A stretch of 54,166 nt of DNA, taken from IMG/VR virus record IMGVR_UViG_3300030380_000295, positions 1 to 54,166 of that record. One strand, given 5' to 3'. This stretch comes from a virus (lineage: Duplodnaviria > Caudoviricetes). Numbering within the stretch: position 1 is the stretch's first letter; each line of letters begins with the position of its first letter. Positions 7,037 to 54,166 of this stretch are shown in pieces. The notes beneath the pieces are model-generated. The model saw only the letters and a program-made list of their open reading frames with translations. It had not been told where the DNA came from and ran no database searches. The position numbers and the translations under genes are program-made.

Positions 7037-7266
7037 TAGTCTTCCTTTCTATTTAGTGTTACTTTTACTTCTTCTTTAAGTTTACTCAATGTTTCCACTA
7101 AAGCCCACTTCCCCCGGTTGAGGAACAATTCCTGTTCCGATGTTGCCACCACCAGACCCTGTACGGTCAAGTTCTTCTGGTGATTGAGGTGGTCCTGTAG
7201 GGCTTCCCATGCCTGCGGGTTGTTGACCAGTGGGAGGAGTTTCTTCGCCTGTTGTTTGCTGAGCAT
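7036..7266 (-). CDS. Small portal-adjacent protein overlapping the portal 3' end
   Basis: 76 aa, helical (LLPLVNN..AW..L...); AGGA RBS; its stop overlaps the next ATG. Confidence 0.6.
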   Translation of the reverse strand: MLSKQQAKKLLPLVNNPQAWEALQDHLNHQKNLTVQGLVVATSEQELFLNRGKWALVETLSKLKEEVKVTLNRKED

Positions 7267-9277
7267 TTTGCATTCCTATTATTTGGGCAGCTATTGCAGC
7301 TTCTTCCGGACTGTTTAGAATTTCTTCTGGGTCTAGGTCGAGACTGAAAGCTAGTTCACTAATTAACTTAGACATCTTAACAAATGGTGCAACTGCAGGA
7401 TTTTGTGCAGTTTGCAAGAACATTGTAAGTCTTTGTGATCTAACTTCTTTCTGCATGAGACTTGCTGTACCCATTGCTTGTATTTCTAGATCACCAACAA
7501 TATCTAAATCTTCTTCTATAAATTGCATATTCCAATGGAAGAAAGCTTCTCCTAAAGGTTTAAGCAAAAAATCGTCAATGTTTTTTATAACTGTTTTAAT
7601 ATTTAAACTTGATGCACCGAGTAGCATTGACATACCTGATGCAGTCCTAGTCATGCTCTGTACTCCTGTCTGCCCATGAGAGTAACTAGGTATTCCAGTT
7701 TGTTCGTCTGCAAGTTGTCTAAACTTGTCAAACATCATCATATTTTCTTGTGCTGTATTTGGAAACTTAATTCCATGTATAGACTGTCCCGGCATTCCTG
7801 CTTGTCTTCTAAATATCTTTCCGGGATATATATCCATAGACTGTCCACCTACTAAAGCAGACTCATCTACATCAAATACTAGTGAACCTGATAACGCTAA
7901 GTTATCAATAGCCATCCTAGCATGTCCATTCATTATTTGTTGAGAGTCTAACATGTTTTCAGGAACTCCAATACCAAAGAAACTATATGGATTCTTTTCG
8001 TAAGGGAATGCATGATAAGGTAATGTTGGAGGTGTAAACGGATTTACAACAGCTCTCAATAAATTCTGTCCACATACCCATGCATTAATCTGTACTTCAT
8101 CTAAATCATCTACTGTATCAGGTAAATTAATTCCTACTTCACGAGCATAGTCTGCATCCATAACTCCCCAGTATTCTAGTATTTCATATCTGTCTGAGTA
8201 GTCTGCTTCACTTCTATCTTCGTCTGCAGTTATTTGATCTTCAAAGTCACGAGCTTCATAATTTGGACCCATTTGTAAAACATTTCTAATAGCATCCTTA
8301 TCAAAGTAAGGCATGTGTCGAAGATTACGAACTTGACTTCTATTAAACTTATGTCTGTGAACAATGTAATCACACTCTTCCATTGTAGTAGCATTAGGGT
8401 CAGGATAAAAATCCCAACAACTTACAAACTCTACTCTGGGAACTCGTACATGTGTAGGTGTATAATTTCTACCTTCTTCTCCAGTTGTCCAACGATGTAA
8501 TGTTTTATTAAAACTAAATGGTCCTTTAAGTATTCCAGTACCAAGCATAGCTGATTCAAACAATGCATTACGTAATTCAGATACACCATTTGATTCTTCT
8601 AGTTGATCATGAATTAGTTTTTCCATATTCCTAGCAGCAATTTGTGCAGGGTTGATACTAGGTACAGGCATAGGAGAACGACCTGCTGTTAAAACTATTT
8701 CTCCATCCTGTCCTGTATAATTATCTTCTAATGAAGATAGAAAACTTTCACCACTTGTTAAAGTAGCTCCGGGTTTTAAAACATTACCATCACCTTCGAA
8801 TCCAACATCAAAAGGATTAGAAGTTACTTCTACTTGTGAAACATCTATACCACTTTCTATTTGTGGTCCTTCAATACTAACTGGTGCTTGATTTAATTCT
8901 ATGTGAGCTTCTTTGGCTATACCTTCCGGTAGCCTTGTTTCTTTTACTGATATTGGAAACTCACCTGTTCCAAACAGTACGTCAATAAGTTGACCATAAG
9001 CAGCTACAGTTTTAGTTTTGGTAACTTTAATAAAAACTCTTGACTTTTCAGATTCTCTAAACTTAACACGCTTTCCGTATAACCCTCTAAAGTTTTGATA
9101 AGATTCTAACCATCTATGTTCATCACCTTGTCTAGCTCTTTCTGCATCTGAAAAACGACTTTTAATAATACCTACGAGGTTTCTGCTTTGATCTTCCTCA
9201 AGCTGTAAGGCTTTACCATCTTCACCTTCTACATCTTCGTATAGATTATCTGCATTTAAAAATGTATTTTCTTCCAT
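7082..9277 (-). CDS. Portal protein
   Basis: About 730 aa with FIKVTKTKT.AAY, WDFYPDP, PYSFFGIGV and RTASGMSML motifs; follows terL. ATG at 9277 is preferred over the track start TTG at 9289. Confidence 0.9.
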   Translation of the reverse strand: MEENTFLNADNLYEDVEGEDGKALQLEEDQSRNLVGIIKSRFSDAERARQGDEHRWLESYQNFRGLYGKRVKFRESEKSRVFIKVTKTKTVAAYGQLIDVLFGTGEFPISVKETRLPEGIAKEAHIELNQAPVSIEGPQIESGIDVSQVEVTSNPFDVGFEGDGNVLKPGATLTSGESFLSSLEDNYTGQDGEIVLTAGRSPMPVPSINPAQIAARNMEKLIHDQLEESNGVSELRNALFESAMLGTGILKGPFSFNKTLHRWTTGEEGRNYTPTHVRVPRVEFVSCWDFYPDPNATTMEECDYIVHRHKFNRSQVRNLRHMPYFDKDAIRNVLQMGPNYEARDFEDQITADEDRSEADYSDRYEILEYWGVMDADYAREVGINLPDTVDDLDEVQINAWVCGQNLLRAVVNPFTPPTLPYHAFPYEKNPYSFFGIGVPENMLDSQQIMNGHARMAIDNLALSGSLVFDVDESALVGGQSMDIYPGKIFRRQAGMPGQSIHGIKFPNTAQENMMMFDKFRQLADEQTGIPSYSHGQTGVQSMTRTASGMSMLLGASSLNIKTVIKNIDDFLLKPLGEAFFHWNMQFIEEDLDIVGDLEIQAMGTASLMQKEVRSQRLTMFLQTAQNPAVAPFVKMSKLISELAFSLDLDPEEILNSPEEAAIAAQIIGMQNAQQTTGEETPPTGQQPAGMGSPTGPPQSPEELDRTGSGGGNIGTGIVPQPGEVGFSGNIE

Positions 9278-9278
9278 A

Positions 9279-11000
9279 TTAATATCCAAAAGTAGAATCA
9301 GAAGCTTCGAATGTACGTTGCTTTAAACGTATCATATCTGAAATAGGGTCTGACATTCTGGGTCTACTCATTATTAAATACCTTAATGCATCATAAGCGT
9401 GATCCTGTGCATGTGTATCTACATCCTCAGGATTCGTTTTAGACAAAGGTATACTTTGTAATTCTTTTACTAAGTCAGGACAAGTGTTAAATATTTGCAA
9501 GCGTGGTCTACTTTCTGGATTTGCTTGTTTTAAATATTCGTGTATTTGCACTTTACCTGCTATTCTATTTTTATCTGCCCTTCTAAGTTTATGTCCTGAT
9601 TTAATCAAGACTTCACCTATCGTAGGTCCTGTGTATCCTGTCCTAGCCCATGCTGCAGTATCTAATACTCCCGGGATTGAACGATACTCTTCTTTTTCTC
9701 TTTCGGTAATCTGTGCTCCAAGTGCTTCACCCGTAAGACCTTTTTGATAAAGTTCTCTATATATAATGAGGGTCTTATCCTGTGGGTCAACAGCAGCCCA
9801 GAGACAACAGCTTTCCGAAGCGTATCCATAGTCAATACCTTTTATTCGTTCCCAATGTAAGGGTATGTCAAAAGGTGGTATGACATGAATAGATGGATCA
9901 AACTCTACAAAAGCTGCTCCTTCATTTACTTCCCAGTTACCTTCTAATAATTGTTTTCTTTGGATTGGAGGTAGTGAAAGGAGCATGCGTTCATACTCAC
10001 CATCTTTTGCTAAGTAAGGATTATCTACTAACTTAGCCGGAATAAACTTTCTTGTTAAACCGTCAGAACCTATAAAAGATTTATTAGGTTCATCTGATTC
10101 CAAATATCTTTTCTTTACCCAGTGTGCTCCAACACCTCCCGGGTTTGCAGTACAACGTAAATAAGTTTTAATACTAGGGTCTGTTGTTCTTAAACGTGAA
10201 GCTAAATAGTTCCACCCGAACTCAGTTGGTAAATGAGTTATCTCATCAAAACCTATCCAACTGTATGCTTGACCTTGATATCTATATACGTCTGCATCTT
10301 TTTCCAAGAAACCAAATTCTATTTTAGCTCCACTTGGAAAGTTCCAAATCTTTTCTACTTCTCTAAACTTTGCACCGGGAAAAGCTTTTGGATATAATTC
10401 TCTACTCTTATCTATCAGTTCTCGTAACTCTGGCATAGACCTTCTAAGTATTAAAGCTCTATGTCCTTTTACGTGACAGTTTCTTAATGGATCAATTAAC
10501 ATGGCAAAACTTTTACCACCACCTGCAGCACCACCATAAAGTACATCCTTTTCGTCTGCTGCTAAGAAATCTGTCTGTGGTCCTTCGTTTGGCATAAAAG
10601 CAACAAACGAATTTGTTTCCTCTAGATGAGCCTGTACAGAATCTGCGAGTTGAGTAACTTCGTTTTCAGTTACTACCTTCCCCTCTTTTGATACTGTCCG
10701 TTCATCCGATGCGTTCTCAAACTTGCGGATTGTTGTTTCCTGTTGTCTGAGTGTTTGTTTTTTGGACCGTAATTTTTTTTCGAGTTTTTCAACTGTCTTC
10801 CTCTTTGAAGTTAATGATCTCTTAGCTGCCATTTTTTTCTTCTGTGCAGTAGAGTATACATATTTAGATTTAGACCCTTTAGGTCTTCCTCCCTTCTTTC
10901 GAGGTGTTCCGTCTTTCTTAAGTATAAGGTTACCTTCAGAATCTGTCAAGTATTGAGTTGAATTTATTTTTGTCTGATTCTTCTTGTCTTTGTCTGTCAT
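9279..11000 (-). CDS. terL: Terminase large subunit
   Basis: Walker A YGGAAGGGKS, Walker B WIGFDE, motif III TANPGG, nuclease GIDYG and DHAYDALRY. Confidence 0.95.
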   Translation of the reverse strand: MTDKDKKNQTKINSTQYLTDSEGNLILKKDGTPRKKGGRPKGSKSKYVYSTAQKKKMAAKRSLTSKRKTVEKLEKKLRSKKQTLRQQETTIRKFENASDERTVSKEGKVVTENEVTQLADSVQAHLEETNSFVAFMPNEGPQTDFLAADEKDVLYGGAAGGGKSFAMLIDPLRNCHVKGHRALILRRSMPELRELIDKSRELYPKAFPGAKFREVEKIWNFPSGAKIEFGFLEKDADVYRYQGQAYSWIGFDEITHLPTEFGWNYLASRLRTTDPSIKTYLRCTANPGGVGAHWVKKRYLESDEPNKSFIGSDGLTRKFIPAKLVDNPYLAKDGEYERMLLSLPPIQRKQLLEGNWEVNEGAAFVEFDPSIHVIPPFDIPLHWERIKGIDYGYASESCCLWAAVDPQDKTLIIYRELYQKGLTGEALGAQITEREKEEYRSIPGVLDTAAWARTGYTGPTIGEVLIKSGHKLRRADKNRIAGKVQIHEYLKQANPESRPRLQIFNTCPDLVKELQSIPLSKTNPEDVDTHAQDHAYDALRYLIMSRPRMSDPISDMIRLKQRTFEASDSTFGY

Positions 11001-11235
11001 ACTTCTTATCTATATGTTTTTTTAGTCCCATTCTTGAAAGTTTACGATTCGTACTGGCTTCTAGCCAATCTACTGCAACCGCTAAACTAATCTCATCGTT
11101 TCGTACCATTTGTGATACAACATTTAAAGCATGTATCTGTTCATCAATAGGTTTTAAATAACCATCTACTTCTGCATCAACTTCATAACCAAAAGGTATT
11201 GTTGATGTTTTTCTTTTTATATATCCTTCTTTCAT
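10936..11235 (-). CDS. Hypothetical DNA-binding protein
   Basis: 99 aa, TIPFGY...W.L...RKLS..GL pattern resembling the DNA-binding domain of serine recombinases; no catalytic domain. Confidence 0.55.
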   Translation of the reverse strand: MKEGYIKRKTSTIPFGYEVDAEVDGYLKPIDEQIHALNVVSQMVRNDEISLAVAVDWLEASTNRKLSRMGLKKHIDKKYDRQRQEESDKNKFNSILDRF

Positions 11236-11648
11236 CTTTGATTATGTGTTCTATGTGCTATTTTACTTTCCCAATCTTCAATAGCTTTAGCTATACTTTC
11301 TTCTGCTAATACACTACAATGTAATTTAATTGGAGGTAAGTCTAGTGCTGCTGCTATGTCTTTATCTTTTATTTGCTTTGCTTCTTCAACTGTCTTACCT
11401 TTGAGCATCTCGACAAACATAGTACTAGATGCTATTGCAGAACCACAACCATATGTTTTAAACTTAACGTCTTCTATTGTGTCTCCATCAAGTTTAAGCT
11501 GTAGTCTCATTACATCTCCACATGCAGGTGCACCAGTCATACCTGTAGCAACATTAGGGTCTGTAGGATCAAACCTACCTACTGCATGTTTCTCAGGTTC
11601 ATTGAGGACACTTTCAAATCTTTCTATTACTTGTTGTGAATAAGCCAT
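11232..11648 (-). CDS. iscU: Fe-S cluster assembly scaffold IscU (auxiliary metabolic gene)
   Basis: All three Cys ligands present (GAPACGD, KTYGCGSAIASS, KLHCS) plus the LPPIK HscA-binding motif. Confidence 0.93.
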   Translation of the reverse strand: MAYSQQVIERFESVLNEPEKHAVGRFDPTDPNVATGMTGAPACGDVMRLQLKLDGDTIEDVKFKTYGCGSAIASSTMFVEMLKGKTVEEAKQIKDKDIAAALDLPPIKLHCSVLAEESIAKAIEDWESKIAHRTHNQR

Positions 11649-11795: not shown

Positions 11796-12083
11796 TTACC
11801 ATTTAACCTTGTCAGCCCAATACGCTGCTGACATCTTACCTTTTGCTATGTTCTTACCATGACGTGCTTTAAAAGACTTACGCTTTGCTTTCATCTTAGC
11901 AGACTCACCTGCTTTAGGCTTACCTGCAGTCTTTGCACCTTTCTGTCCAAACCTTATGGTTTTAATCTTTGAACCCTCTTTAGCCACAACTATATGTGAC
12001 TTCTTTGGATGATTCGGAGTACGTTTAGGCTTGTTGTAGCCAGAGACTCCTGCTCGTTTTAATCTACTATCTTTCTCTGCCAT
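11796..12083 (-). CDS. Lys-rich hypothetical protein
   Basis: 95 aa; GYNKPKRTPNHPKKSH...IRFGQ.G...RKSFKARH...SAAYWADKVKW, a family common in marine phages. Confidence 0.75.
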   Translation of the reverse strand: MAEKDSRLKRAGVSGYNKPKRTPNHPKKSHIVVAKEGSKIKTIRFGQKGAKTAGKPKAGESAKMKAKRKSFKARHGKNIAKGKMSAAYWADKVKW

Positions 12084-12325
12084 TATCTTTTCTTTCCTTT
12101 ATGTAGTCCATGTTTAGCATGTTGCTTACCTTTCTTTGTAGCTGCTCGTTTCTTTTTATTAGCTGCTGCTAGTTTCTTTCTTCCTGCTGCAGTTGATTTA
12201 AGTTTCTTTATTGTAGCTGCAGGTGCATAAACCTCACCAGTCTCTGAAGACTTCTTACCACTAGCAGTTCTCCACTTCTGTTTAGTCCACTTCTTTAAAG
12301 ACTTCTGAGACTTTTTAAGTGCCAT
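12083..12325 (-). CDS. Lys-rich hypothetical protein
   Basis: 80 aa; SQKSLKKWTKQKWRT.SGK.S..TGE.Y.P. Confidence 0.75.
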   Translation of the reverse strand: MALKKSQKSLKKWTKQKWRTASGKKSSETGEVYAPAATIKKLKSTAAGRKKLAAANKKKRAATKKGKQHAKHGLHKGKKR

Positions 12326-12510
12326 TACTTATAGCCTCCACCTGCTTTTTTATATTGACTTGCTAACAGTTGAGCTTTCCTAGCACTCCATTGTCCGGGT
12401 TTACCACCTTTACTTCCTGCTTTGATCTTATTAAATAGTCTTTTACGCATAGTAGGCTTAGTGTAGTTCCCTGCTTTATTTACTGTTGATTTCTTTTTCT
12501 TGGCTGCCAT
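12325..12510 (-). CDS. Lys-rich hypothetical protein
   Basis: 61 aa; NYTKPTMRKRLF..IKAGSKGGKPGQWSARKAQ.LA..YK..GGGYK. Confidence 0.75.
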   Translation of the reverse strand: MAAKKKKSTVNKAGNYTKPTMRKRLFNKIKAGSKGGKPGQWSARKAQLLASQYKKAGGGYK

Positions 12511-13007
12511 TATTCTTCCTCTTCATCATTAATTTTTCCCACATGAGGTTGTTGGAATCCAACTTCTGTTTCATCGTAGGTGTCTTCTTCTTCATAGGTT
12601 ATGTCCTCTGCTTCTGCATCTATAGGAGCTTTGTCTGGTAATATAAAGATACCACTAGATGCTTGCATATTAATATCTAACTTCTCAGACTTTGAAACTC
12701 CTACACGATCTAATAAAGATTGTGCAGCTACCAGTTTGTTACTAGCCTGAGGTATTGGTTTATCTGAATCCATAATCTCTAATAGCTTAAAAGCTGCTTT
12801 AGGGGCATTGTGAGCTAACACATCTTTAGTTAGTTCTAATACTTCGTTCTTCAAAGCTTTTAAAACTTGGTAGTGTCCACCAGAATAACCTGCTAATTCT
12901 GCTGCTACTTTAGCATTACCTTCTGTTTCTATAAGATTATCTAAGAATAACTGTTGTTTTTCTGTAAGCTGTCTAGCTTGTTGAGTTGTTGGTATAATAC
13001 TGCTCAT
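12510..13007 (-). CDS. terS: Probable terminase small subunit
   Basis: N-terminal HTH LTEKQQLFLD.L....GN...AAELAGYS and AAQSLLDRVG; first gene of the late arm. Confidence 0.7.
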   Translation of the reverse strand: MSSIIPTTQQARQLTEKQQLFLDNLIETEGNAKVAAELAGYSGGHYQVLKALKNEVLELTKDVLAHNAPKAAFKLLEIMDSDKPIPQASNKLVAAQSLLDRVGVSKSEKLDINMQASSGIFILPDKAPIDAEAEDITYEEEDTYDETEVGFQQPHVGKINDEEEE

Positions 13008-13014
13008 GTAAACT

Positions 13015-13042
13015 AGTATAGGTTCTCCTGAAAAAAAGTCAA
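13015..13042 (-). promoter_or_regulatory. Sigma70-type promoter for the late arm
   Basis: TTGACT-16 bp-TATACT on the minus strand; predicted start site falls at or next to the terS ATG (13007). Confidence 0.65.
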
Positions 13043-13049
13043 GAAGGAC

Positions 13050-13078
13050 TTGACAAAAAGCTCTCTGGACTGTAGAAT
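13050..13078 (+). promoter_or_regulatory. Sigma70-type promoter, divergent from the terS promoter
   Basis: TTGACA (13050-55)-17 bp-TAGAAT (13073-78). Confidence 0.75.
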
Positions 13079-13155
13079 GAGGCTTGTCCGGTAGGCAGGT
13101 TAGTACCTATAGGATACACCCTCTACTAATAGTCTATTAAGCCCGACCTAACTGG

Positions 13156-13186
13156 TTGACATCCTAAACCCGATAAAATGTATAAC
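13156..13186 (+). promoter_or_regulatory. Possible second promoter whose start site would coincide with the 5' edge of the giant inverted repeat
   Basis: TTGACA at 13156 and TATAAC at 13181; the 19 bp spacer is atypical. Confidence 0.35.
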
Positions 13187-13942
13187 CACACCATAGATAT
13201 ATACGGAGGGTGGTATGGTCTCCTGCGTCCCCCTCGAGAACCTGACGTATAAGTAGGTGATAAGACCTAATAGACATTCCTTAAACAAACTAGCAAGACT
13301 AAATAAACTTCAAGACTATTGAGTCCTACCTGATGTACTTCAGTAAGCATTACATAGTCTTAAAAGATCAGAAGCTTTCAAAGTTTATGTAGTCTTAGCA
13401 AGCCTCACATTGCTTATCAAGCTTGCCGGACTACTAAGTGTAGGCTTCATCTCCAAAAACTATCTAGTTTACAAAGATTATAAAGTTTGTAAGCATTAAT
13501 AATATTATGTTTAAACTAATAACTTCATAAACTTCAAAGGGTTAGATAGTTTTTGTAGTATTTCATAAACCATTCCGTATCCATATCACAAGTATCCTTA
13601 GTTCGATATAGTCTATTAGTATAAGAGCAATCTAGACATTCATTCGATTGGTCTAATCAGTTGCGTTTATCCCCCTGTCTTTTACTAGCAGAAGCTTTGA
13701 GCAGCTTGCTATCCTTGAAAGACTAATCCCATACTCCTGCCCTGAAACTGTGTGTTTCTAAGACCTTGTAACGTCATAACTATCATATATATTCTTCCTG
13801 TATATTTATTTACATTACATGAACGCTTGTACATCACAAGAGTCAAGACCCTGTAACAGCTAAAGCTTAACAGGCTCTAAACACTGCTCTTGTAATCTAA
13901 AAGCTTTTCATGTTTAATGTATTTATTTACAGGGAGAATATT

Positions 13943-14125
13943 ATGATACTAATAACCTTTCAAGATCAAGAAACTCATCAGTTTCAAAACAGTTTTATGG
14001 CAAAGTCTTTCATTGGATATCAATCCACTCAAAACATCTTTGTTGTAAAAGTCAGATGTGATAAGGCATCTGATTATACTGCAATCGAAGATTATCTTAG
14101 ATTGCTTAATACTAATATCCAATAA
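13943..14125 (+). CDS. Early hypothetical protein (right arm of the inverted repeat)
   Basis: GGGAG RBS before ATG 13943 (track start 13910); about 60 aa. Confidence 0.6.
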   Translation: MILITFQDQETHQFQNSFMAKSFIGYQSTQNIFVVKVRCDKASDYTAIEDYLRLLNTNIQ

Positions 14126-14142
14126 AACTAAGGAGTTATAAT

Positions 14143-14418
14143 ATGGATACTACATTTGATATGAAAAAAGTGAAGCCTGAAACACTTAAAGGTCAGGCAA
14201 CCTATAACCAATGTGAGGGCCTTGCTAAGAAGTTCTCATATGGTTTGAAAGGCAAAGAGTGGGGAGAATCTTACTCTAGAATTAGAGCTTGCTTACTGAA
14301 TGAAAGATCAGAAGGCACACTTTCCTTTCAAAAAGCTTCTGATCTTTATAAAAAGAAGAAGCTTCCTAAAGTATATACAGATAAAATATCTAATTATCTT
14401 GATATACATTCCGGCTAG
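14143..14418 (+). CDS. Early hypothetical protein (right arm of the inverted repeat)
   Basis: 91 aa with AAGGAG RBS; followed by a terminator. Confidence 0.75.
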   Translation: MDTTFDMKKVKPETLKGQATYNQCEGLAKKFSYGLKGKEWGESYSRIRACLLNERSEGTLSFQKASDLYKKKKLPKVYTDKISNYLDIHSG

Positions 14419-14430
14419 TTTGTAGCTCTA

Positions 14431-14466
14431 AAAGGGAGTAGGTCTTATCACCTGCTCCTTTTTTTA
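14431..14466 (+). terminator. Intrinsic terminator 1
   Basis: GGGAGTAGGT-CTTATC-ACCTGCTCCT stem plus T-run. Confidence 0.75.
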
Positions 14467-14482
14467 TTCTCGGGGACTAAGT

Positions 14483-14510
14483 AGGCTTGGCAGTAGCCAA
14501 GTCTTTTTAT
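14483..14510 (+). terminator. Intrinsic terminator 2
   Basis: AGGCTTGGC-AGTA-GCCAAGTCT followed by TTTT. Confidence 0.7.
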
Positions 14511-14573
14511 TTGCAGGAGACCATATCCATATTAAATATTTATTTTAGGTACTTCGTATATCTTAGTATTCAG

Positions 14574-14745
14574 TAGGGGCAACAGGTGGAGGGCATACTG
14601 TAGATAAACTGTATATATCCTGTATATAACATGTATATATCCTGTATATATCCTGTGGATAACTTAATATTATATTAATTAGGGGGCAAGAGGTGGAGGG
14701 AGTTTAATATATAGTTTAATTATATATTTAAAATAAATGATATAA
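14574..14745. other. Origin-like element: six DnaA-box-like 9-mers at 11-bp period, flanked by a G-rich direct repeat and AT-rich tracts
   Basis: TGTAGATAA 14599, TGTATATAT 14610, TGTATATAA 14621, TGTATATAT 14632, TGTATATAT 14643, TGTGGATAA 14654; AGGGG(G)CAA(C/G)AGGTGGAGGG at 14575-93 and 14681-700. Confidence 0.65.
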
Positions 14746-14750
14746 TAGAC

Positions 14751-14780
14751 TTGACAAGATCATGCCGGTTGGGATAAACT
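14751..14780 (+). promoter_or_regulatory. Early sigma70-type promoter
   Basis: TTGACA-18 bp-TAAACT; shares the 21-mer GATATAATAGACTTGACAAGA with the promoter at 15340. Confidence 0.7.
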
Positions 14781-14842
14781 TTAAAGCGTTCGGTGCAACC
14801 ACCGGACATTTGTTTAAATATAATAACCTGAGGAGGTTTAAC

Positions 14843-15135: not shown

Positions 15136-15320
15136 TGACATTTAGAACTCAAGATTTAGCTTTCGATCACTATCGTAATAAAGGTTTTAGATATGATAAC
15201 TCCATGAGTATCCGAGAGGATAAATGGTACATGTTTAGAAAAGGCAACCGCTATATAGTTATAACTCCCAAGTATGATAATATACTGGGAACTAGTTGGA
15301 TAGCGAGAAGCTTTTATTAG
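15135..15320 (+). CDS. Early hypothetical protein
   Basis: 61 aa with GAGGAGG RBS. Confidence 0.7.
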   Translation: MTFRTQDLAFDHYRNKGFRYDNSMSIREDKWYMFRKGNRYIVITPKYDNILGTSWIARSFY

Positions 15321-15339
15321 TATAATAGATATAATAGAC

Positions 15340-15369
15340 TTGACAAGAATGGGCGAGTCGGGTTATACT
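15340..15369 (+). promoter_or_regulatory. Early sigma70-type promoter
   Basis: TTGACA-18 bp-TATACT. Confidence 0.75.
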
Positions 15370-15443
15370 TTTAGGGCTTCGGCAATGGAGGTATCTCTTA
15401 GATACTTTTTTAATAATAATAATACCTGAGGAGGTAACAAGAT

Positions 15444-19982: not shown

Positions 19983-20396
19983 ATGGCAGTAGTTAATGGA
20001 ACTGCGTATTGGGCAAGTATTAAAACACCTAATACCAAATTTGAACCTGTATACACAGTCAACCTAGTAGTTGATGAAGATACAGCAAATGATTTTGCGT
20101 CAAGAGGACACAAGATAAAACAGATGGATGAAGGTCCATCACTTGTTATCAAACGAAAAGTTAATGGACCAAATGGAATGGTTCGTACAGCACCTAGATT
20201 ATTAGATGCTGAAAAGAATGAAGTTAATTATTCAGTTGGTAATGGTTCTAAAGTAAGAGTACAATTCAATGAGTACGAAGGCGAGAATAAGTATGGTCCT
20301 TATACAGGGTTAGACTTACAAGCTGTTCAAGTACTTGACCTTGTTGAGTACCGAGCTGAGGATGGTGCAGAATTGTTAGACGGAGAAGAATTCTAA
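19983..20396 (+). CDS. ssb: Single-stranded DNA-binding protein (T7 gp2.5-like)
   Basis: G.AYWA, VGNGSKVRV, L.AVQVLDLVEY motifs and an acidic tail ending in Phe (DGEEF). Confidence 0.8.
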   Translation: MAVVNGTAYWASIKTPNTKFEPVYTVNLVVDEDTANDFASRGHKIKQMDEGPSLVIKRKVNGPNGMVRTAPRLLDAEKNEVNYSVGNGSKVRVQFNEYEGENKYGPYTGLDLQAVQVLDLVEYRAEDGAELLDGEEF

Positions 20397-24132: not shown

Positions 24133-24433
24133 AGATTCAAGTAGAAAAGGAGACTTTGCAGAGTATTACGCAGTCACATGGTTGTGGGATAATGGCTATG
24201 AAGTCTTTCAAAACTCAGGATGTACTGGTCCTGTTGATATGATTGCGTTAGATAAAAAAGGTAAAACAGTTTTGATTGATGTGAAAACATTACAGCCTGA
24301 CTACAGAAATAAAACAGGCAACAGAGTTATGTTTAAAACAGGAAGAACAAAACTTCAAGAAAAATTAGACGTACAGTTTTTACTTTTTAATCCTGATACA
24401 AGAGAACTTAAATTTGCAGAGCATAAAAAATGA
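24119..24433 (+). CDS. PD-(D/E)XK endonuclease (Holliday-junction-resolvase-like)
   Basis: G..AE...V.WL...GYEVF and GPVDM...LIDVKT. Confidence 0.75.
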   Translation: MKPIKDSSRKGDFAEYYAVTWLWDNGYEVFQNSGCTGPVDMIALDKKGKTVLIDVKTLQPDYRNKTGNRVMFKTGRTKLQEKLDVQFLLFNPDTRELKFAEHKK

Positions 24434-25296
24434 AAAAGAAATTAGTTAATATCGTACCTGATATATATAAAGCTATTGCTCCCTTAACAAAAGGAGAAGG
24501 CTTAGATATTTCAGAAGAAATGATTGATTCATTTGGTGAAGATATGAAAGCAGCTATGCGAGATTGGGTTAAGAAACAACCTAAGACTAAAGATTCTTTG
24601 CGTATGTCTAACATAGGTAAGCCTGCTAGACAGCTTTGGTATAACAAGCATTCTAAAATCAAAGCTAAAGATTTACAGGCTACGTTAATGATTAAGTTTT
24701 TATATGGACATATTCTAGAAGCTCTTGTAGTCTTTCTTGTTAAGTTATCTGGACATAAGATTACCGATCAACAGAAAGAAGTAAACGTAAATGGTATTAA
24801 AGGACACATGGATTGTAAAATAGATGGAGAGGTAGTAGATATTAAATCTACATCAGGTTTTGCTTTTAATAAATTTAAGAATGGAACTCTACCTGAGAAT
24901 GATAGCTTCGGATACATGGCACAGCTTGCCGGATACGAAGAGGCAGAAGGTACAGATCAAGGAGGTTTTCTAGCCATCAATAAAGAAACAGGAGAACTTT
25001 GGTTCTTTCGACCGGATGAGCTTGACAAACCTGATATAAAGTCTAAAATTAAAAGGTTAAAGGCAACTCTAAAAAAGCCTGAACCTCCTGAGTTATGTTA
25101 TCAACCGATAGCAGATGGTGCTCAGGGCAACTTCAAACTTCCGAGAGAATGTACATGGTGTCCTCATAAAATAGAATGCCACTCGGAGTCTAATCACGGA
25201 CAAGGACTTCGTATTTTTGATTATGCGAGAGGTCCTGTTTTTTTCACAGATATAGTCACTGAACCTAGAGTTCGGGAGATAACCCATGAATGGTAA
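24430..25296 (+). CDS. PD-(D/E)XK exonuclease (Cas4/RecB-like)
   Basis: LRMSNIGKP.RQLWY, GHMD, VVDIKS, Y.AQL.GY and C-terminal CTWCPHK..C. Confidence 0.8.
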   Translation: MKKKLVNIVPDIYKAIAPLTKGEGLDISEEMIDSFGEDMKAAMRDWVKKQPKTKDSLRMSNIGKPARQLWYNKHSKIKAKDLQATLMIKFLYGHILEALVVFLVKLSGHKITDQQKEVNVNGIKGHMDCKIDGEVVDIKSTSGFAFNKFKNGTLPENDSFGYMAQLAGYEEAEGTDQGGFLAINKETGELWFFRPDELDKPDIKSKIKRLKATLKKPEPPELCYQPIADGAQGNFKLPRECTWCPHKIECHSESNHGQGLRIFDYARGPVFFTDIVTEPRVREITHEW

Positions 25297-46976: not shown

Positions 46977-49265
46977 CTATTCTCCGTTTAATTTACTTTC
47001 TAATTCTTCGACTTTTGCCGAAAGTTCTTGTACTGCTTTAGTTAAAATTGGTATGAGTGCCGCCTCTGCAACTCTTTGTTGTCCTGTACTATCATCATCA
47101 TCCCACATACTAAATCCATTTTTAATATCACTATGTTTATCAATAGCTGCTTTAACTTCTTGTGCTATAAAACCATGTTGACTTTTTTCGCTTTTGTATA
47201 CCTCTGTAGAACCTTCTTCGTAACCTTTAAACTCTGTAGGTAAATCACCTTTATTTCTGTAATTAAAAGTTACAGGTCTTAAATCGTTTATAAAGTTTAT
47301 TCCTACTGTAGAATCTACAATATCTTTTTTAACTCTTTCATCCGAAACAGTAGCCCACGTTGCTACACCATGCTGTGCTCTTATGTCAGAAGTGTTATTG
47401 CCTAGAGTTGTGTAGCCGGGTGCACAATCAATGTTATATCCTAGTCCGTGTGCTTGATTACCTCCCGCAGTTGTAGAATCAGTATAAGCACCAATAAGTA
47501 TATTACCACTACCTGTTGTGAGATTATCTCCATAAGTTCCTGTACTATAACCAAGAAGAGTATTACCATTTCCAGTAGTTATTTCATTACCTGATAGACC
47601 ACCTACACATGTATTTGTATCACCTGTCGTGCAATCTTGTAAAGCTAAATGTCCATATGCTGTGTTATTAGAAGCTGTTGTGTTAGCTGATAAAGCACCA
47701 TAGCCCATTGCTGTGCAAGAGTTTCCTGTAGTATTAGCATCTAAGGCTAACCCACCTACAGCAGTATTATCACCACCTGTAGTGTTTGCCGACATAGCAT
47801 TGTAGCCAATTGCTGTATTGTAAGTTGCAGTTGTATTAGCATCTAAGGCATAAGCACCTACAGCAGTACATTGTGCTCCTGTAGTGTTTCCTAATAATGC
47901 TACATAACCTACAGCAACATTATTTGCTGCGGTTGTACTAGCACCAAGAGCCGACCTACCAAGAGCTGTGTTGTAATTACCAGTAGTATTAGCATCAAGT
48001 GAATTTGCACCATAAGCTACATTTTGTGTTCCTGTAGTATTAGCTACCATGGAATTTAAACCCATTGCGGTATTAGTGCTTCCAGTTGTAGTTACTTTAA
48101 GAGCCTGATGTCCTACTGCTGTATTGTTACTAACAGTAGAATCAGCTAATGCAAATGCCCCTACTGCAACATTTTGTGCTCCTGTTTGATTGTCTGTTAA
48201 AGCAGCATATCCTAAAGCAACATTATCATCCGCAGAAGTGTTTGCGTCTAAAGAATATGTTCCTACTGCTACATTTTGAGTTCCTGTAGTATTTGCTCCC
48301 AAAGCACTTGTTCCAACTGCTGTATTATTACTTGCAGTAGTGTTTGAATCTAAAGCCTCTTTACCAACTGCTGTATTGTTTGCTCCTGTCGTATTATTCT
48401 GTAAAGTTGCATATCCAACTCCAGTATTACTTGCTCCTGTAGTATTTACTTGTAAAGCTACTCTACCAACTGCTGTGTTAAAAGATGCGGTTGTGTTTGC
48501 ACTTAATGATGATGTACCTAAAGAAGTGTTATATGAACCAGTTGTATTAGCATCAAGAGCGTTTGAACCTATTGCTGTGTTTTGTGTTCCTGTAGTGTTT
48601 GCATATAAAGCTTGATAACCAACTGCTGTGTTGTAAGAAGCTGTGGTATTAGCACCTAAAGCATGAACACCTAATCCAACATTCTGTGCTCCAGTAGTAT
48701 TAGAATCTAAGGATAAACCTCCAACTGCTGTATTATCAGCACCTGTAGTGTTTGCTCCGAGTGCTGAGTAACCTATTCCTGTGCCATAACTTGCAGTAGT
48801 GTTTGCATCTAAAGCCGCATAGCCCGTAGCAGTATTTCCTGTTCCTGTAGTGTTTGCTGCTAAAGCACTTCTGCCAACTGCTACGTTGTAATTTGCTGTA
48901 GTGTTTGCTACTAAAGAATTAAATCCGAATGCTGTATTGTTCTCTCCTGTCGTATTTACTAATAAAGAGTTTAATCCTACAGCAGTATTATTTGATGCAG
49001 TAGTATTATCTCTTAAAGCATTCATTCCTACAGCAACATTCTGAGTGCCTGTGGTGTTTGCATATAAAGTTTGATAACCCACTGCAACATTATTATCACC
49101 AGTAGTCAAAGCTCCAAAAACCCTTACACCAACACCTGTATTATAATTAGCAGCATCTATAGTACCAGTCGCATCATTACCAATCATAATTGATGAAGTA
49201 CCAAAAGCTTTTGATGTCAGTGCTGCTGAATTTAATACTTCACTCGTTACTTTAGTTATTGCCAT
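46977..49265 (-). CDS. Tail fibre/spike with 14-aa repeats and an intramolecular chaperone (peptidase S74) domain
   Basis: More than 30 NTT(G/A)..NTAVG..AL repeats; SDERVKK, LRPVTF, GFIAQEV and a terminal coiled coil. Confidence 0.85.
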   Translation of the reverse strand: MAITKVTSEVLNSAALTSKAFGTSSIMIGNDATGTIDAANYNTGVGVRVFGALTTGDNNVAVGYQTLYANTTGTQNVAVGMNALRDNTTASNNTAVGLNSLLVNTTGENNTAFGFNSLVANTTANYNVAVGRSALAANTTGTGNTATGYAALDANTTASYGTGIGYSALGANTTGADNTAVGGLSLDSNTTGAQNVGLGVHALGANTTASYNTAVGYQALYANTTGTQNTAIGSNALDANTTGSYNTSLGTSSLSANTTASFNTAVGRVALQVNTTGASNTGVGYATLQNNTTGANNTAVGKEALDSNTTASNNTAVGTSALGANTTGTQNVAVGTYSLDANTSADDNVALGYAALTDNQTGAQNVAVGAFALADSTVSNNTAVGHQALKVTTTGSTNTAMGLNSMVANTTGTQNVAYGANSLDANTTGNYNTALGRSALGASTTAANNVAVGYVALLGNTTGAQCTAVGAYALDANTTATYNTAIGYNAMSANTTGGDNTAVGGLALDANTTGNSCTAMGYGALSANTTASNNTAYGHLALQDCTTGDTNTCVGGLSGNEITTGNGNTLLGYSTGTYGDNLTTGSGNILIGAYTDSTTAGGNQAHGLGYNIDCAPGYTTLGNNTSDIRAQHGVATWATVSDERVKKDIVDSTVGINFINDLRPVTFNYRNKGDLPTEFKGYEEGSTEVYKSEKSQHGFIAQEVKAAIDKHSDIKNGFSMWDDDDSTGQQRVAEAALIPILTKAVQELSAKVEELESKLNGE

Positions 49266-51144: not shown

Positions 51145-51334
51145 TTATCCCTCTAGAGTTTCTATTCTAGCTTTTAATTCTTCTATTATTGTTTGTTGTT
51201 CTTTCATACCTGCTACTAAGTGAGTTACAAGTTTGCTGTAATCCATTTGATAATACTCTTCTTCTGAACCTGATACTGCATTTGGTACTACATCTAATAC
51301 TTCTTGTGCTATCAAACCTTCATCAGCTTTACCA
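51145..51334 (-). pseudogene. Out-of-frame C-terminal remnant of the S74 chaperone domain of the main tail fibre
   Basis: GKADEGLIAQEV...MDYSKLVTHLV..MKEQQ..IEELKARI is the S74 C-terminus; the SD.RLK start of the domain is missing. Confidence 0.7.
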
Positions 51335-54166
51335 AGCAGTTGCACTACTTGAAGTTGAAATGCTTCCTACTTCACCATTACCATTAAAAAATAATTTATG
51401 TTTTCTTGTGCTTGTTGAGACTACACCAGAATACATTTGATAGTCTTGAATAGATGAACCTTGTACCGATGCACTTGGAGTAGCAGTACAAGCTATATGA
51501 ACACTACCATAAGTATCAATATTTAATCTACTTGTGCTACCACCTGAACCTAATGACAATGTATCAGTGCCATGGTCGTAACCTACAGAACCACGATAGG
51601 CTGCTGAACCAGAAGTACCATCCGCAAACATTAGATAAGACTTGTGAGAGCCGTGTGAAGAAGCAATCGTTATACCGCCTTCATCATCTGAACCTACAAC
51701 TAAGTTATCTGAATAGTAACCTGTAGGGTCTGTATTGTTTATGCCTACTTTTCCATTAACATCAATACGCATTCTTTCTGTGGTGTTAGTTCTAAATGCC
51801 ATGTGATTATCAGCATGGTCATAGCTAATTCTACCTATGTCGTTATCAGAAGCATCGCCAAAATCAATAAAACTAGCAGCTCCGTCTGCAACATTAAATC
51901 TTAATCCGTCTTCATCGGCATGAGAGATATTAACTTTCATGTTTGGACTCGTAGTTCCTATACCTACGTTCCCTGAAGAATCAATACGCATTCTTTCTGC
52001 ACCAGAATTAGTATGAAAACTCATGTAATTAGATGCGTGACTGTAGACTAAACCACCTTCGTATTGTTGAGTTGTGGTTGTTCCGTCTGCAAAGTTAATA
52101 GAGCCTTGAGCACTTGAGCCTGAATAAACAGTTAAACCTGCGGAATTACTGCCTGAACCAACTACTAAATGCGGTGCATTAACTCTTTGGTCAAAAGAAG
52201 AAGGACTAGAAGTTCCTATGCCTACTCCTGTACCATTTATAACAAGTTGATTAGAGTTATTTATACCAAATAAATGACTGCTTCCTGTTGGTACATTATA
52301 AAACCAAGTACCTGCTGTACCGTCACCACCAATCCATCTATCTCCTGCTGAACCTGTATTGCCACTTGTACCCTCTACAGCTAAATATCCTGTTGCTTCT
52401 ACAATGCCTGTAACATCTAAACCTGTAGAATCTATAACAACTCTTTCAGTACCACCGGTATCAAAACGTATCTTATCTTCGTCAGTGCTTTCTTCTACCT
52501 GTATCTTTGTATCACTATCTGAATCTTTTAGTTCAATAGTAGCTACAGTAGTATTAGTAAATGTTGTACATTCTACTTTAGTTCCTGTTGGAGGAGCTTC
52601 ACTAAATGTTAGTGTGCTACCAGAAACTGCATATGTATCTTTGTGTTGGAATACACCATCAATAGTTACAAAGGTTGCATTCTCATTAGAAGGTGAAACA
52701 CTTAAAGCTAGTGTAGTATCTGAACCATCACCAGTCATAGTATCGACTGTTGGTGCAGTTCCTACAACTCCCACTTCCATAATGTAAGCAACTACTTTAT
52801 TACCATTAGCAGGGGCTGTACCAAATGTTAATGTTGTGCCGGATAAAGTGTAAGAGTCTTGTCTTTGGAATACACCTTCATTAAATATAATTAATCTGTC
52901 TTCATTGTTTGCAGAAATAGTTTTAGATAGTGTAAATGCAGTTGTGCTACCATCACCTGTAAACTCATCTCTTACAAATGATGATGAGCTTCCACCACTA
53001 CCACCTGAACCTGCAATAGCTCCCCACTCACTTGTATAGCCTTCAAACTGTGATGTACTTGTATTGTATCTAAATAGACCTTCTGCAGCAGTTGGTCGTT
53101 GTGCTGTTGTACCTTTAGGTATTAATATAGCATCTGTATTAGACCCCGCATCTATAGAAACTGTTGGTGTAGTTTGATTAATACCAATTCTATTTGTACT
53201 TACGTCTGCAAATAATACTCCGCTATCTACGTTTAAGTCTCCAGAGAAAGTACCTGTTGTAGCGGACACAGCACCTGAAAATGTTCCTGTAGTTGCTGTA
53301 ATACCTGCAGTTACTAAATTAGCAGCAGCGTATCCAGTTGCTCCAGTATTTACTGTAGTACCGGGAACTGTCTGTGTATCTGTAAATAATCTAAATGTAT
53401 TGTCAGTAGAAGCATCAAAGAATAAACCTGCAAATTTAGTTGTACTTGATTCTACATACTTACCGTAGAAACCAAAGTCACTAGAGTTGCCTGTGTTCTC
53501 GTCTAATAGACCTGTGAAGTTAGAGTCACTAACTACTGAACCTGTTTGTGTTGTTGTTCCTGTAACTGATAAATTACCTGCTACTGTCAAGTTATTTGCT
53601 ATTGTAATATCATTAGCTAACTTATCACCTGTAACTTGGTCATCTGCAATGTGTACTGTATCAATAGCTCCATCTGCAATCTGAGCAGAATCAATAGCAT
53701 CGTCTGCCATCATAGAGTTTACTATGACATCGTTACCTATAACTAAGTCAATAGTACCATCACCATCTTCATATGTAGCTGCAATACCAGTTTCAGTATT
53801 ACTTGAGAACATAGCACCGACAGTATCTTGTACAACTTCGGTTAAATCAATATTTGCTGAACCATCAAAGGATACACCATGTATAGTTCTAGGAGTTGTT
53901 AAAGTAGCTGCTGAACCTGTAATATTACTTGATGTTAAAGCAATAGTACCTGTAGTTGAAGGAAGTGTAGCAACAATGTCACCACTAAATGCACTATGAG
54001 CAGGAGCTTGTAATCTTGCTTTGTGAGCATTACTAGATTCACAATAGAAGTCTACATAAGATTGTGTGCCACCATTCTTAATAGATATAGCACCTTGAGA
54101 AATACTAACTCCATCTGAACCACCAAAGGTAGCTGTACCTGTTACTGCAGGTGAAGAAATAGTAGG
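51329..54166 (-). CDS. Main tail fibre, C-terminal part (continuation of 1513..1)
   Basis: The frame is open from 54166 through the track ORF 51329..53812; GDGSTT.F.L Ig-like repeats and ERMRID.SG.VGIGT modules. Confidence 0.85.
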   Translation of the reverse strand, partial: PTISSPAVTGTATFGGSDGVSISQGAISIKNGGTQSYVDFYCESSNAHKARLQAPAHSAFSGDIVATLPSTTGTIALTSSNITGSAATLTTPRTIHGVSFDGSANIDLTEVVQDTVGAMFSSNTETGIAATYEDGDGTIDLVIGNDVIVNSMMADDAIDSAQIADGAIDTVHIADDQVTGDKLANDITIANNLTVAGNLSVTGTTTQTGSVVSDSNFTGLLDENTGNSSDFGFYGKYVESSTTKFAGLFFDASTDNTFRLFTDTQTVPGTTVNTGATGYAAANLVTAGITATTGTFSGAVSATTGTFSGDLNVDSGVLFADVSTNRIGINQTTPTVSIDAGSNTDAILIPKGTTAQRPTAAEGLFRYNTSTSQFEGYTSEWGAIAGSGGSGGSSSSFVRDEFTGDGSTTAFTLSKTISANNEDRLIIFNEGVFQRQDSYTLSGTTLTFGTAPANGNKVVAYIMEVGVVGTAPTVDTMTGDGSDTTLALSVSPSNENATFVTIDGVFQHKDTYAVSGSTLTFSEAPPTGTKVECTTFTNTTVATIELKDSDSDTKIQVEESTDEDKIRFDTGGTERVVIDSTGLDVTGIVEATGYLAVEGTSGNTGSAGDRWIGGDGTAGTWFYNVPTGSSHLFGINNSNQLVINGTGVGIGTSSPSSFDQRVNAPHLVVGSGSNSAGLTVYSGSSAQGSINFADGTTTTQQYEGGLVYSHASNYMSFHTNSGAERMRIDSSGNVGIGTTSPNMKVNISHADEDGLRFNVADGAASFIDFGDASDNDIGRISYDHADNHMAFRTNTTERMRIDVNGKVGINNTDPTGYYSDNLVVGSDDEGGITIASSHGSHKSYLMFADGTSGSAAYRGSVGYDHGTDTLSLGSGGSTSRLNIDTYGSVHIACTATPSASVQGSSIQDYQMYSGVVSTSTRKHKLFFNGNGEVGSISTSSSATAW
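54067..54166. repeat. Second copy of the terminal 100-bp repeat
   Basis: 99 of 100 bases identical to 1-100. Confidence 0.95.

Follow-up and report, generated by a model that had tools for sequence, protein, structure and literature searches.

A long quasi-palindrome mirrors the first two early genes in an uncultured relative of HTVC103P-type pelagiphages

In IS10, expression of the transposase is limited by fold-back inhibition of its mRNA: when transcription enters from a promoter outside the element, the resulting RNA contains a complementary stretch upstream of the gene that base-pairs with the gene's ribosome-binding site (RBS). In phage T7, early mRNA forms imperfect hairpins that are cut by RNase III. 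Here we analyze a much longer fold-back in the genome of an uncultured tailed virus (IMG/VR record IMGVR_UViG_3300030380_000295; the window below is this whole record, 54,166 bp, with a CheckV completeness of 100% and no end repeats). One arm of the fold-back carries the first two early genes, referred to as open reading frames ORF1 and ORF2, and the other arm is their non-coding mirror. Whereas the stems of the IS10 and T7 structures measure tens of base pairs, the predicted duplex of the fold-back spans ~600 bp and takes in two whole genes.

Long inverted repeats whose arms evolve in concert within a genome are represented by the palindromes of the human Y and X chromosomes and by plastid inverted repeats (available portions of PMC3723533 and PMC8981503). 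The fold-back shares with the large palindromes inverted arms that are closer to each other than to their orthologs in other genomes, and indels and patches that are mirrored between the arms. Large palindromes are, however, >99% identical and hold working genes on both arms, whereas the arms of the fold-back are 71–86% identical over aligned bases across lineages, with many indels, and one of them is frameshifted and non-coding. The phage element also differs in having a near-zero spacer and a total length of 1.3 kb.

Template switching at quasi-palindromes, in which one arm is copied into the other, is described as a source of multi-nucleotide changes and arm growth (available portions of PMC7202029, PMC8604942, and PMC13100816). 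Such mutagenesis is in keeping with indels that are mirrored, with short patches, and with the existence of both 155-nt and 650-nt forms of the mirror among the relatives analyzed below; the described cases involve tens of bases, whereas here a 650-nt arm mirrors two genes. Our literature searches found neither the long-term upkeep of a 650-nt arm mirroring two genes nor a comparable phage element, and no paper that treats HMO-2011 together with an inverted repeat.

Among phages, the injection-stop (iss) region of T5 is non-coding, contains inverted repeats, palindromes, and DnaA boxes, and is conserved among relatives (bioRxiv 10.1101/866236, available text). Like the locus described here, it is a non-coding, repeat-rich region beside the first genes expressed. 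The T5 repeats, however, are 131 bp long, lie ~3 kb apart, and mirror no coding sequence, and the present locus has a single consensus DnaA box.

Among cultured phages, Pelagibacter phages HTVC103P, HTVC104P, and HTVC115P come closest (TerL identity 64.5%), and the window genome is, as judged from its sequence, an uncultured relative of HTVC103P-type pelagiphages. A DNA similarity search against 50,697 phage records gave no match. HTVC103P has the same layout as the window—TerS, a non-coding gap of ~800 nt, and small early genes—but the fold-back is absent there. Relatives of these phages reportedly rank with the most abundant groups of marine viruses, and the available text of the preprint that describes HTVC103P mentions neither repeats, palindromes, nor intergenic regions (bioRxiv 10.1101/2019.12.14.876532).

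An imperfect mirror of two early genes

TerS and the early genes point away from each other across a 0.93-kb gap, and the fold-back lies in this gap and in the first two early genes themselves. Positions 13214–13866 (left arm) form an imperfect reverse complement of positions 13867–14525 (right arm), with the symmetry center at about 13866/13867. On the plus strand, the right arm contains a promoter region, ORF1 (13943–14125, 60 aa), ORF2 (14143–14418, 91 aa; a five-helix protein in the structure model), two intrinsic-terminator-like hairpins (14430–14463 and 14483–14504), and the right copy, on the minus strand, of the 13-mer TATGGTCTCCTGC (14513–14525). The left arm mirrors the terminators, ORF2, ORF1, the RBSs, and the promoter region without coding for protein.

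Global alignment of 13190–13866 with the reverse complement of 13867–14570 yielded 452 matches, 163 mismatches, and 151 gap columns, corresponding to ~73% identity over aligned bases, with the best identity over the inner ~270 bp. The arms scored 146 in this alignment, against 7.43 ± 3.25 for shuffled sequences (n = 100, maximum 18), or ~40 standard deviations above them, and against 12 in the direct orientation. Self-comparison of the whole window returned a single inverted match at E ≤ 1e-3 (13252–14456, E 5e-84). Both results agree with the original prediction, made from the letters of the window, that the region at 13.2–13.85 kb is a degenerate mirror of that at 13.87–14.56 kb. The three helices quoted there were all recovered: 13214–13226/14513–14525, formed by the 13-mer and its complement, the only two exact copies in the window; 13252–13269/14439–14456, which is complementary at 17/18 positions and mirrors the first terminator; and 13393–13412/14210–14231. 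The outer limits proposed for the element, 13195 and 14563, contract to 13214 and 14525. The promoter-like sites do lie upstream, as had been claimed, whereas the terminators placed downstream both fall inside the right arm (14430–14504).

For both ORF1 (13943) and ORF2 (14143), the RBS and start codon were expected to lie in well-kept helices, and they are well matched in 9–10 of 10 lineages. Likewise, the left arm is not kept as protein. Its minus strand retains an RBS and an ATG and reads a 25-aa stub (MIVMTLQGL..., 13709–13786, minus strand), a frameshifted mirror of the ORF1 N-terminus that is not conserved as an ORF in relatives. Across nine genomes no mirrored left-arm ORF of at least 35 aa was found, save a 41-aa read in this window that contains the stub. 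A gene on the left arm is rejected; none of the 13 aligned sequences, from about seven lineages, has a coding left arm. The middle of the fold-back aligns poorly in the window because ~85 nt of the left arm, the mirror of the middle of ORF2, have been lost here between 13390 and 13393 (alignment columns 224–310); five relatives (L063, L016, L018, L015, and L023) keep this piece.

The same geometry, with changes on both arms, recurs in relatives, and the original prediction passes the refutation test that it had set for this case. The fold-back is present in all 12 of the 12 viral contigs that encode an ORF2 relative. Of 63 loci that carry TerS and extend at least 1200 nt upstream of it, some of them duplicates, 18 have the long fold-back, 9 a partial one, and 36 none; in all 18 long-form loci TerS is at least 76% identical to that of the window. 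Carriers fall into clade A (the window, L063, L018, L016, L015, L023, and L028/L032) and clade B (L020, L029/L030, L034, and L037/L038), which differ by ~40% across the fold-back region. ORF1 and ORF2 diverge much faster than TerS (ORF2 identity between the clades 38–46%, TerS identity 76–88%); the arms persist across lineages with ORF2 proteins this far apart. The right copy of the 13-mer is kept only in clade A. Because the fold-back recurs in related loci, it is not an assembly artefact: with one geometry in 18 loci, on many separate metagenome contigs of diverged sequence and ~40 standard deviations above shuffles, the probability of a chimera or of chance is negligible.

More distant relatives hold separate palindromes of 60–300 nt in the same gap of ~0.7–1.1 kb. 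Separate imperfect palindromes, with no long fold-back, are seen at 348–464, 522–688, and 775–1074 in L035 and at 295–906 in L039, counted from the TerS start.

Several known classes of element were considered and set aside. The two Rfam matches were at chance level, with E 0.36 and 0.62 and scores far short of the gathering threshold, and the ARAGORN tRNA search returned 0 genes. A foldback transposon or miniature inverted-repeat transposable element was rejected: the element is single-copy, the 13-mer flanks differ, there is no target duplication, and the right 13-mer is absent in clade B. A hairpin telomere (telRL) or inverted terminal repeats was rejected on the 74% identity of the arms and the presence of a terminase, a T7-like primase-helicase, and a family A polymerase (protelomerase was not specifically searched for in all ORFs).

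Co-variation and copying between the arms

The element is not simply a duplicate in decay: left arms follow the right arm of their own genome. They score 100–147 against it and 9–48 against the right arm of a deep relative, and right arms score 132–299 against each other across genomes. At sites where right arms differ, left arms carry their own state rather than the swapped one at ratios of 64:4 (window versus L034), 60:4, 52:3, and 62:5, and of 22:1 within clade A. A tree splits the arms first by clade (support 99), left and right together, and then, within each clade, into left and right, as expected of mosaic, partial copying.

Pair counts over 13 sequences and 331 pairs, compared with shuffled (n = 500) and slid-partner controls, pointed the same way, with the proviso that deep left-arm alignments are uncertain. 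Paired cells made up 81.7%, versus 74.3% in shuffles (0/500) and 36–41% with slid partners; the pairing structure was taken from the same sequences, which inflates this percentage and leaves the contrast in double changes unaffected. Pairs changed on both sides numbered 125, versus 75.1 ± 5.0 in shuffles (0/500) and 49–60 with slid partners. Recent branches of clade A carry 8 same-lineage double changes against 0.61 expected (0/20000 permutations), one of which (13721/14007) mirrors a window-specific Ser/Cys replacement in ORF1.

Coding insertions specific to one lineage are mirrored in that lineage's own left arm: 18 nt at the start of ORF1 in L034, 6 nt in ORF1 in L029, and 6 nt in ORF2 in L037. 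Tracked sites are also clustered, forming fewer runs than in permutations (P ≤ 0.02 in 6/9 pairs), in a test where some mirrored-gap columns are end effects of arm cutting. Mirrored coding insertions and clustered tracked sites require that one arm serve as template for the other. Weighing against this, the 8 double changes on recent branches lie only 0–9 matched bases from long-standing mismatches; the patches were therefore very short, or these changes are selected compensations. Prompted by the single-site double changes, we also considered mismatch-repair-type correction of a DNA hairpin.

All left arms, those of L027 and L035 included, contain at the same place a side hairpin of ~108 nt with a basal stem of 13–16 bp (13451–13558 in the window). 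It has no right-arm counterpart and no other copy in the genome. The hairpin holds an invariant 12-mer, CTAGTTTACAAA; 9/24 of its predicted pairs are changed on both sides, its basal stem (columns 28–42) shows 0 one-sided changes, and its folding z-scores are −3.3 on the plus and −4.8 on the minus strand. Since this feature is common to 12/12 lineages, the left arms have a single origin, and independent duplications in each lineage, which would have to share an arm-specific hairpin at the same place, are rejected.

At the level of these alignments, the comparison shows a conserved quasi-palindrome that arose long ago when the first early transcription unit was duplicated once in inverted orientation. 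Its left arm drifts approximately neutrally, yet copying from, or together with, the coding arm renews it time and again. Such re-copying accounts for each left arm matching its own right arm better than that of any other genome.

Candidate function and rival explanations

Our preferred reading, to which we assign a probability of about 40%, is that the left arm would act as a cis-antisense leader on read-through early transcripts and so set the dose or timing of the ORF1 and ORF2 proteins. The signals on which it draws begin between TerS and the leader with a 17-nt palindrome, GTCAAG-N5-CTTGAC (13038–13054), kept in 12/12 lineages aligned. This palindrome holds back-to-back −35 boxes, one belonging to P1 on the plus strand and the other to a TerS-side promoter-like site on the minus strand (13042–13015); read on the minus strand (13054–13038), it scores as a terminator-like hairpin followed by a run of seven T, before TerS. 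P1 is a sigma-70-type promoter-like sequence (TTGACA-17-TAGAAT, 13050–13078, plus strand) that points into the left arm, scores 11 of 12 in the promoter scan, and has hexamer regions kept in 12/12 lineages. Two further putative promoters on the plus strand were read by eye: P2 (TTGACA-19-TATAAC, 13156–13186), whose region is conserved in the 12 lineages aligned, with a −35 box of TTGACA or TTTACA in relatives, and P3 (TTGTAA-17-TTTAAT, 13890–13918), a proximal ORF1 promoter just right of the symmetry center that reads TTGACA or TTGACG in clade B.

Under this reading, the inverted duplication would have placed a mirror of the promoter region, ORF1, ORF2, and the terminators between P1/P2 and that unit. 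Templated DNA copying between the arms, by gene conversion or replication template switching, would then keep the mirror up. Plausible drivers are two proteins of the phage itself, a gp2.5-like single-stranded DNA (ssDNA)-binding/annealing protein (encoded at 19983–20396) and a Cas4-domain exonuclease (24430–25296), a possible recombination pair for arm-to-arm copying. Host RNA polymerase starting at P1 or P2 would meet no terminator before ORF1: on the plus strand, terminator-like sites are listed at 14430, 14483, and 14788 only, none of them between P1/P2 and ORF1. Because a terminator is absent there, P1/P2 transcripts would contain both arms. Starting at the center, they would zip up over ~600 bp of interrupted duplex, a likely RNase III substrate in which both genes would have their RBS and start codon buried; transcripts from the proximal P3 would lack the left arm and hence be translatable. 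The element would then be a large, self-updating form of fold-back inhibition. In its fuller version, arm-to-arm DNA copying would rewrite the complement whenever the genes change, and the duplex would gate ORF1 and ORF2 or serve as a double-stranded RNA or ssDNA signal or decoy at the start of infection; we regard this extension as fairly unlikely.

The predicted fold of a transcript covering 13195–14510 is one long rod containing both RBSs. At −446 kcal/mol on the plus strand, it lies far below shuffled sequences (−286 ± 10) and outside the range of 11 other stretches of the genome (−230 to −349), in agreement with the expectation that a single transcript could fold into a long interrupted rod. 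The spacer between P1 and P2 gave no sign of a structured RNA of its own (z −0.55).

Several results weigh against an antisense leader. Minus-strand RNA is predicted to be more stable in 8/8 lineages, by 9–55 kcal/mol (−498.8 versus −446 in the window), and a role for plus-strand RNA is therefore not favored. P2 and P3 are absent from the promoter scan, P2 owing to its 19-nt spacer, and rest on reading by eye. Between close relatives the left arm differs at 0.08–0.18 of sites, versus 0.09–0.16 at four-fold sites of ORF1 and ORF2 (small samples, 43–50 sites each); because this rate is approximately synonymous, per-base-pair selection on the left arm is weak or absent. The window tolerates the ~85-nt left-arm deletion. 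Wobble-type mismatches in six lineages number 76 on the plus and 114 on the minus strand, with no plus-strand G:U excess, and isolated mismatches, of which 31/43 are transversions, show no G:U excess either. In baseline orthologous differences about half are transitions, and the transition deficit is compatible with saturation; neither the full set of mismatches nor the isolated ones gave a usable signal for assigning a strand by wobble pairs. In L027 and L035, which have a close TerS, the mirror is restricted to the inner ~155 nt, comprising the promoter, RBS, and ORF1 start, and in cultured HTVC103P the fold-back was not found (score 54 versus 42.8 ± 5.5 shuffled). Of the compensatory changes that the original prediction named as a check, the changes on both arms are real, whereas selection on RNA at the level of base pairs is not borne out, and the pattern looks like templated DNA copying.

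A self-perpetuating, functionless quasi-palindrome is a possibility that we take seriously while doubting it. After one duplication, the dead arm would have been rewritten from the coding arm, by replication template switching or gene conversion, at a pace that outruns its decay, with no selection. The near-synonymous rate of the left arm, its recent ~85-nt deletion, and the unenriched wobble pairs fit such an origin, as do the tract-like co-variation and mirrored indels, and on recent branches 30 left-arm changes break the match and 2 restore it. Template switching is described as homogenizing and expanding the arms of inverted repeats (PMC8604942 and PMC13100816, available portions), and L027, L035, and HTVC103P manage without the long form. 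Without selection, however, ~650 nt of useless DNA would have been retained in a compact genome down to an ORF2 identity of 38–46%, with loss of the whole arm in no lineage. The leader moreover keeps a length of ~700 nt even where the mirror is missing, other palindromes of 60–300 nt taking its place; the side hairpin shows compensatory stem changes; and conserved strong promoter signals point into the arm.

A DNA-level element near a candidate origin, consisting of the fold-back or of the palindrome-rich leader as a whole and acting in replication initiation, in DNA entry through a T5-like injection pause, or in packaging, is in our estimate unlikely. The fold-back sits where the cumulative GC skew switches, directly between TerS and an array on the plus strand (14576–14700) that adjoins the fold-back and is not part of it. 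This array comprises five 11-bp tandem units (CCTGTATATAT-like) and, at its end, one consensus DnaA box (TGTGGATAA) plus variants; it is flanked by an 18-nt direct repeat, GGGGCAA(C/G)AGGTGGAGGG, and is conserved in clade A. On its sequence it is a candidate origin, iteron, or protein-binding array. Side-hairpin double changes without G:U intermediates suit DNA pairing or copying, distant relatives hold a palindrome series at the same place, and the T5 injection-stop region is likewise non-coding and repeat-rich, with DnaA boxes, beside the pre-early genes (bioRxiv 10.1101/866236, available text). Arms of 74–86% identity with many indels are, however, poor cruciform formers, the array has only the one consensus DnaA box with no paired boxes seen, and the T5 repeats exclude the genes themselves. 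Several related contigs end 19–60 nt from the TerS start, which allows no inference about genome ends because a conserved/variable boundary at this place would break assemblies.

That the left arm is a silent donor cassette, a reservoir of patches diversifying ORF1 and ORF2 as in antigenic variation, is highly improbable: the two genes do diverge much faster than TerS, and copying between the arms occurs, but among polarized recent right-arm changes 0 move toward the prior left-arm state and 9 break the match, and the left arm is full of frameshifts.

Genomic surroundings and significance

The leader region contains other conserved signals. The motif GGAGGGTGGTATGGTCTCCTGC (13205–13226, plus strand) is highly conserved in 12 lineages, with alignment columns G7–C27 invariant, and it ends in the 13-mer that makes up the outermost helix of the fold-back. 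At 13205–13245, right after putative P2, a conserved Shine–Dalgarno-like GGAGG and an ATG or GTG open a mini-ORF that starts MVSC and has 8–16 codons depending on the lineage; it is possibly a leader peptide or a purely nucleotide-level motif. TAGTCT/AGACTA occurs 7 times in the ~790-nt leader (13080–13870) versus 43 times genome-wide; this enrichment was set aside, the number not being conserved among relatives.

No Pfam or PHROG family was found above threshold for ORF1 or ORF2. ORF2 had no sequence match in the PDB, and its model (predicted local distance difference test score 82.9) matched no solved fold (best Foldseek E-value 1.9). Because neither protein has a recognizable family or fold, the earlier description of the pair as toxic host-takeover genes is without basis.

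Packaging and structural genes run on the minus strand up to TerS (portal, 7082–9289; TerL, 9279–11000; TerS, 12510–13007). On the plus strand, small early genes begin at 13943 and are followed by a T7-like replication set that includes the gp2.5-like single-stranded DNA-binding/annealing protein, a primase-helicase, a family A polymerase, the Cas4-domain exonuclease, and a ribonucleotide reductase. The next two small early operons are headed by a repeated promoter-leader unit (14728–14793 and 15317–15382; 74% identity over 66 nt) with TTGACA promoters and a short hairpin after each (e.g., 14788–14807). Between TerL and TerS lie a NifU/IscU-like Fe-S assembly gene (11232–11648; PHROG 8429, E 5.5e-28) and three small, very lysine-rich proteins (11796–12510). 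A 762-aa ORF on the minus strand (46977–49265) consists of many diverged internal direct repeats, with self-matches of ~60% identity and up to 1.4 kb. The record ends cut two minus-strand ORFs, at 1–1513 (504 aa, 3′ open) and 51329–54166 (945 aa, 5′ open), which could be one gene of ~1450 aa over a circular junction, but their frames lie one base apart.

To our knowledge, almost nothing is known about early-infection control in HTVC103P-type relatives, and the fold-back is a candidate for a new type of control over early genes that can be tested directly. For the study of concerted evolution, it offers a clean natural example from a virus in which one arm codes for two fast-evolving early genes and the other does not code. 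For annotation it serves as a warning, in that the seemingly empty 0.9 kb beside TerS is not empty. If upkeep is purely mechanistic, the element shows how strongly template switching or annealing-type recombination shapes phage genomes. If the antisense reading is true, a self-updating antisense leader would be a heritable, auto-corrected cis-silencer, a regulatory principle that our literature searches did not find for phages.

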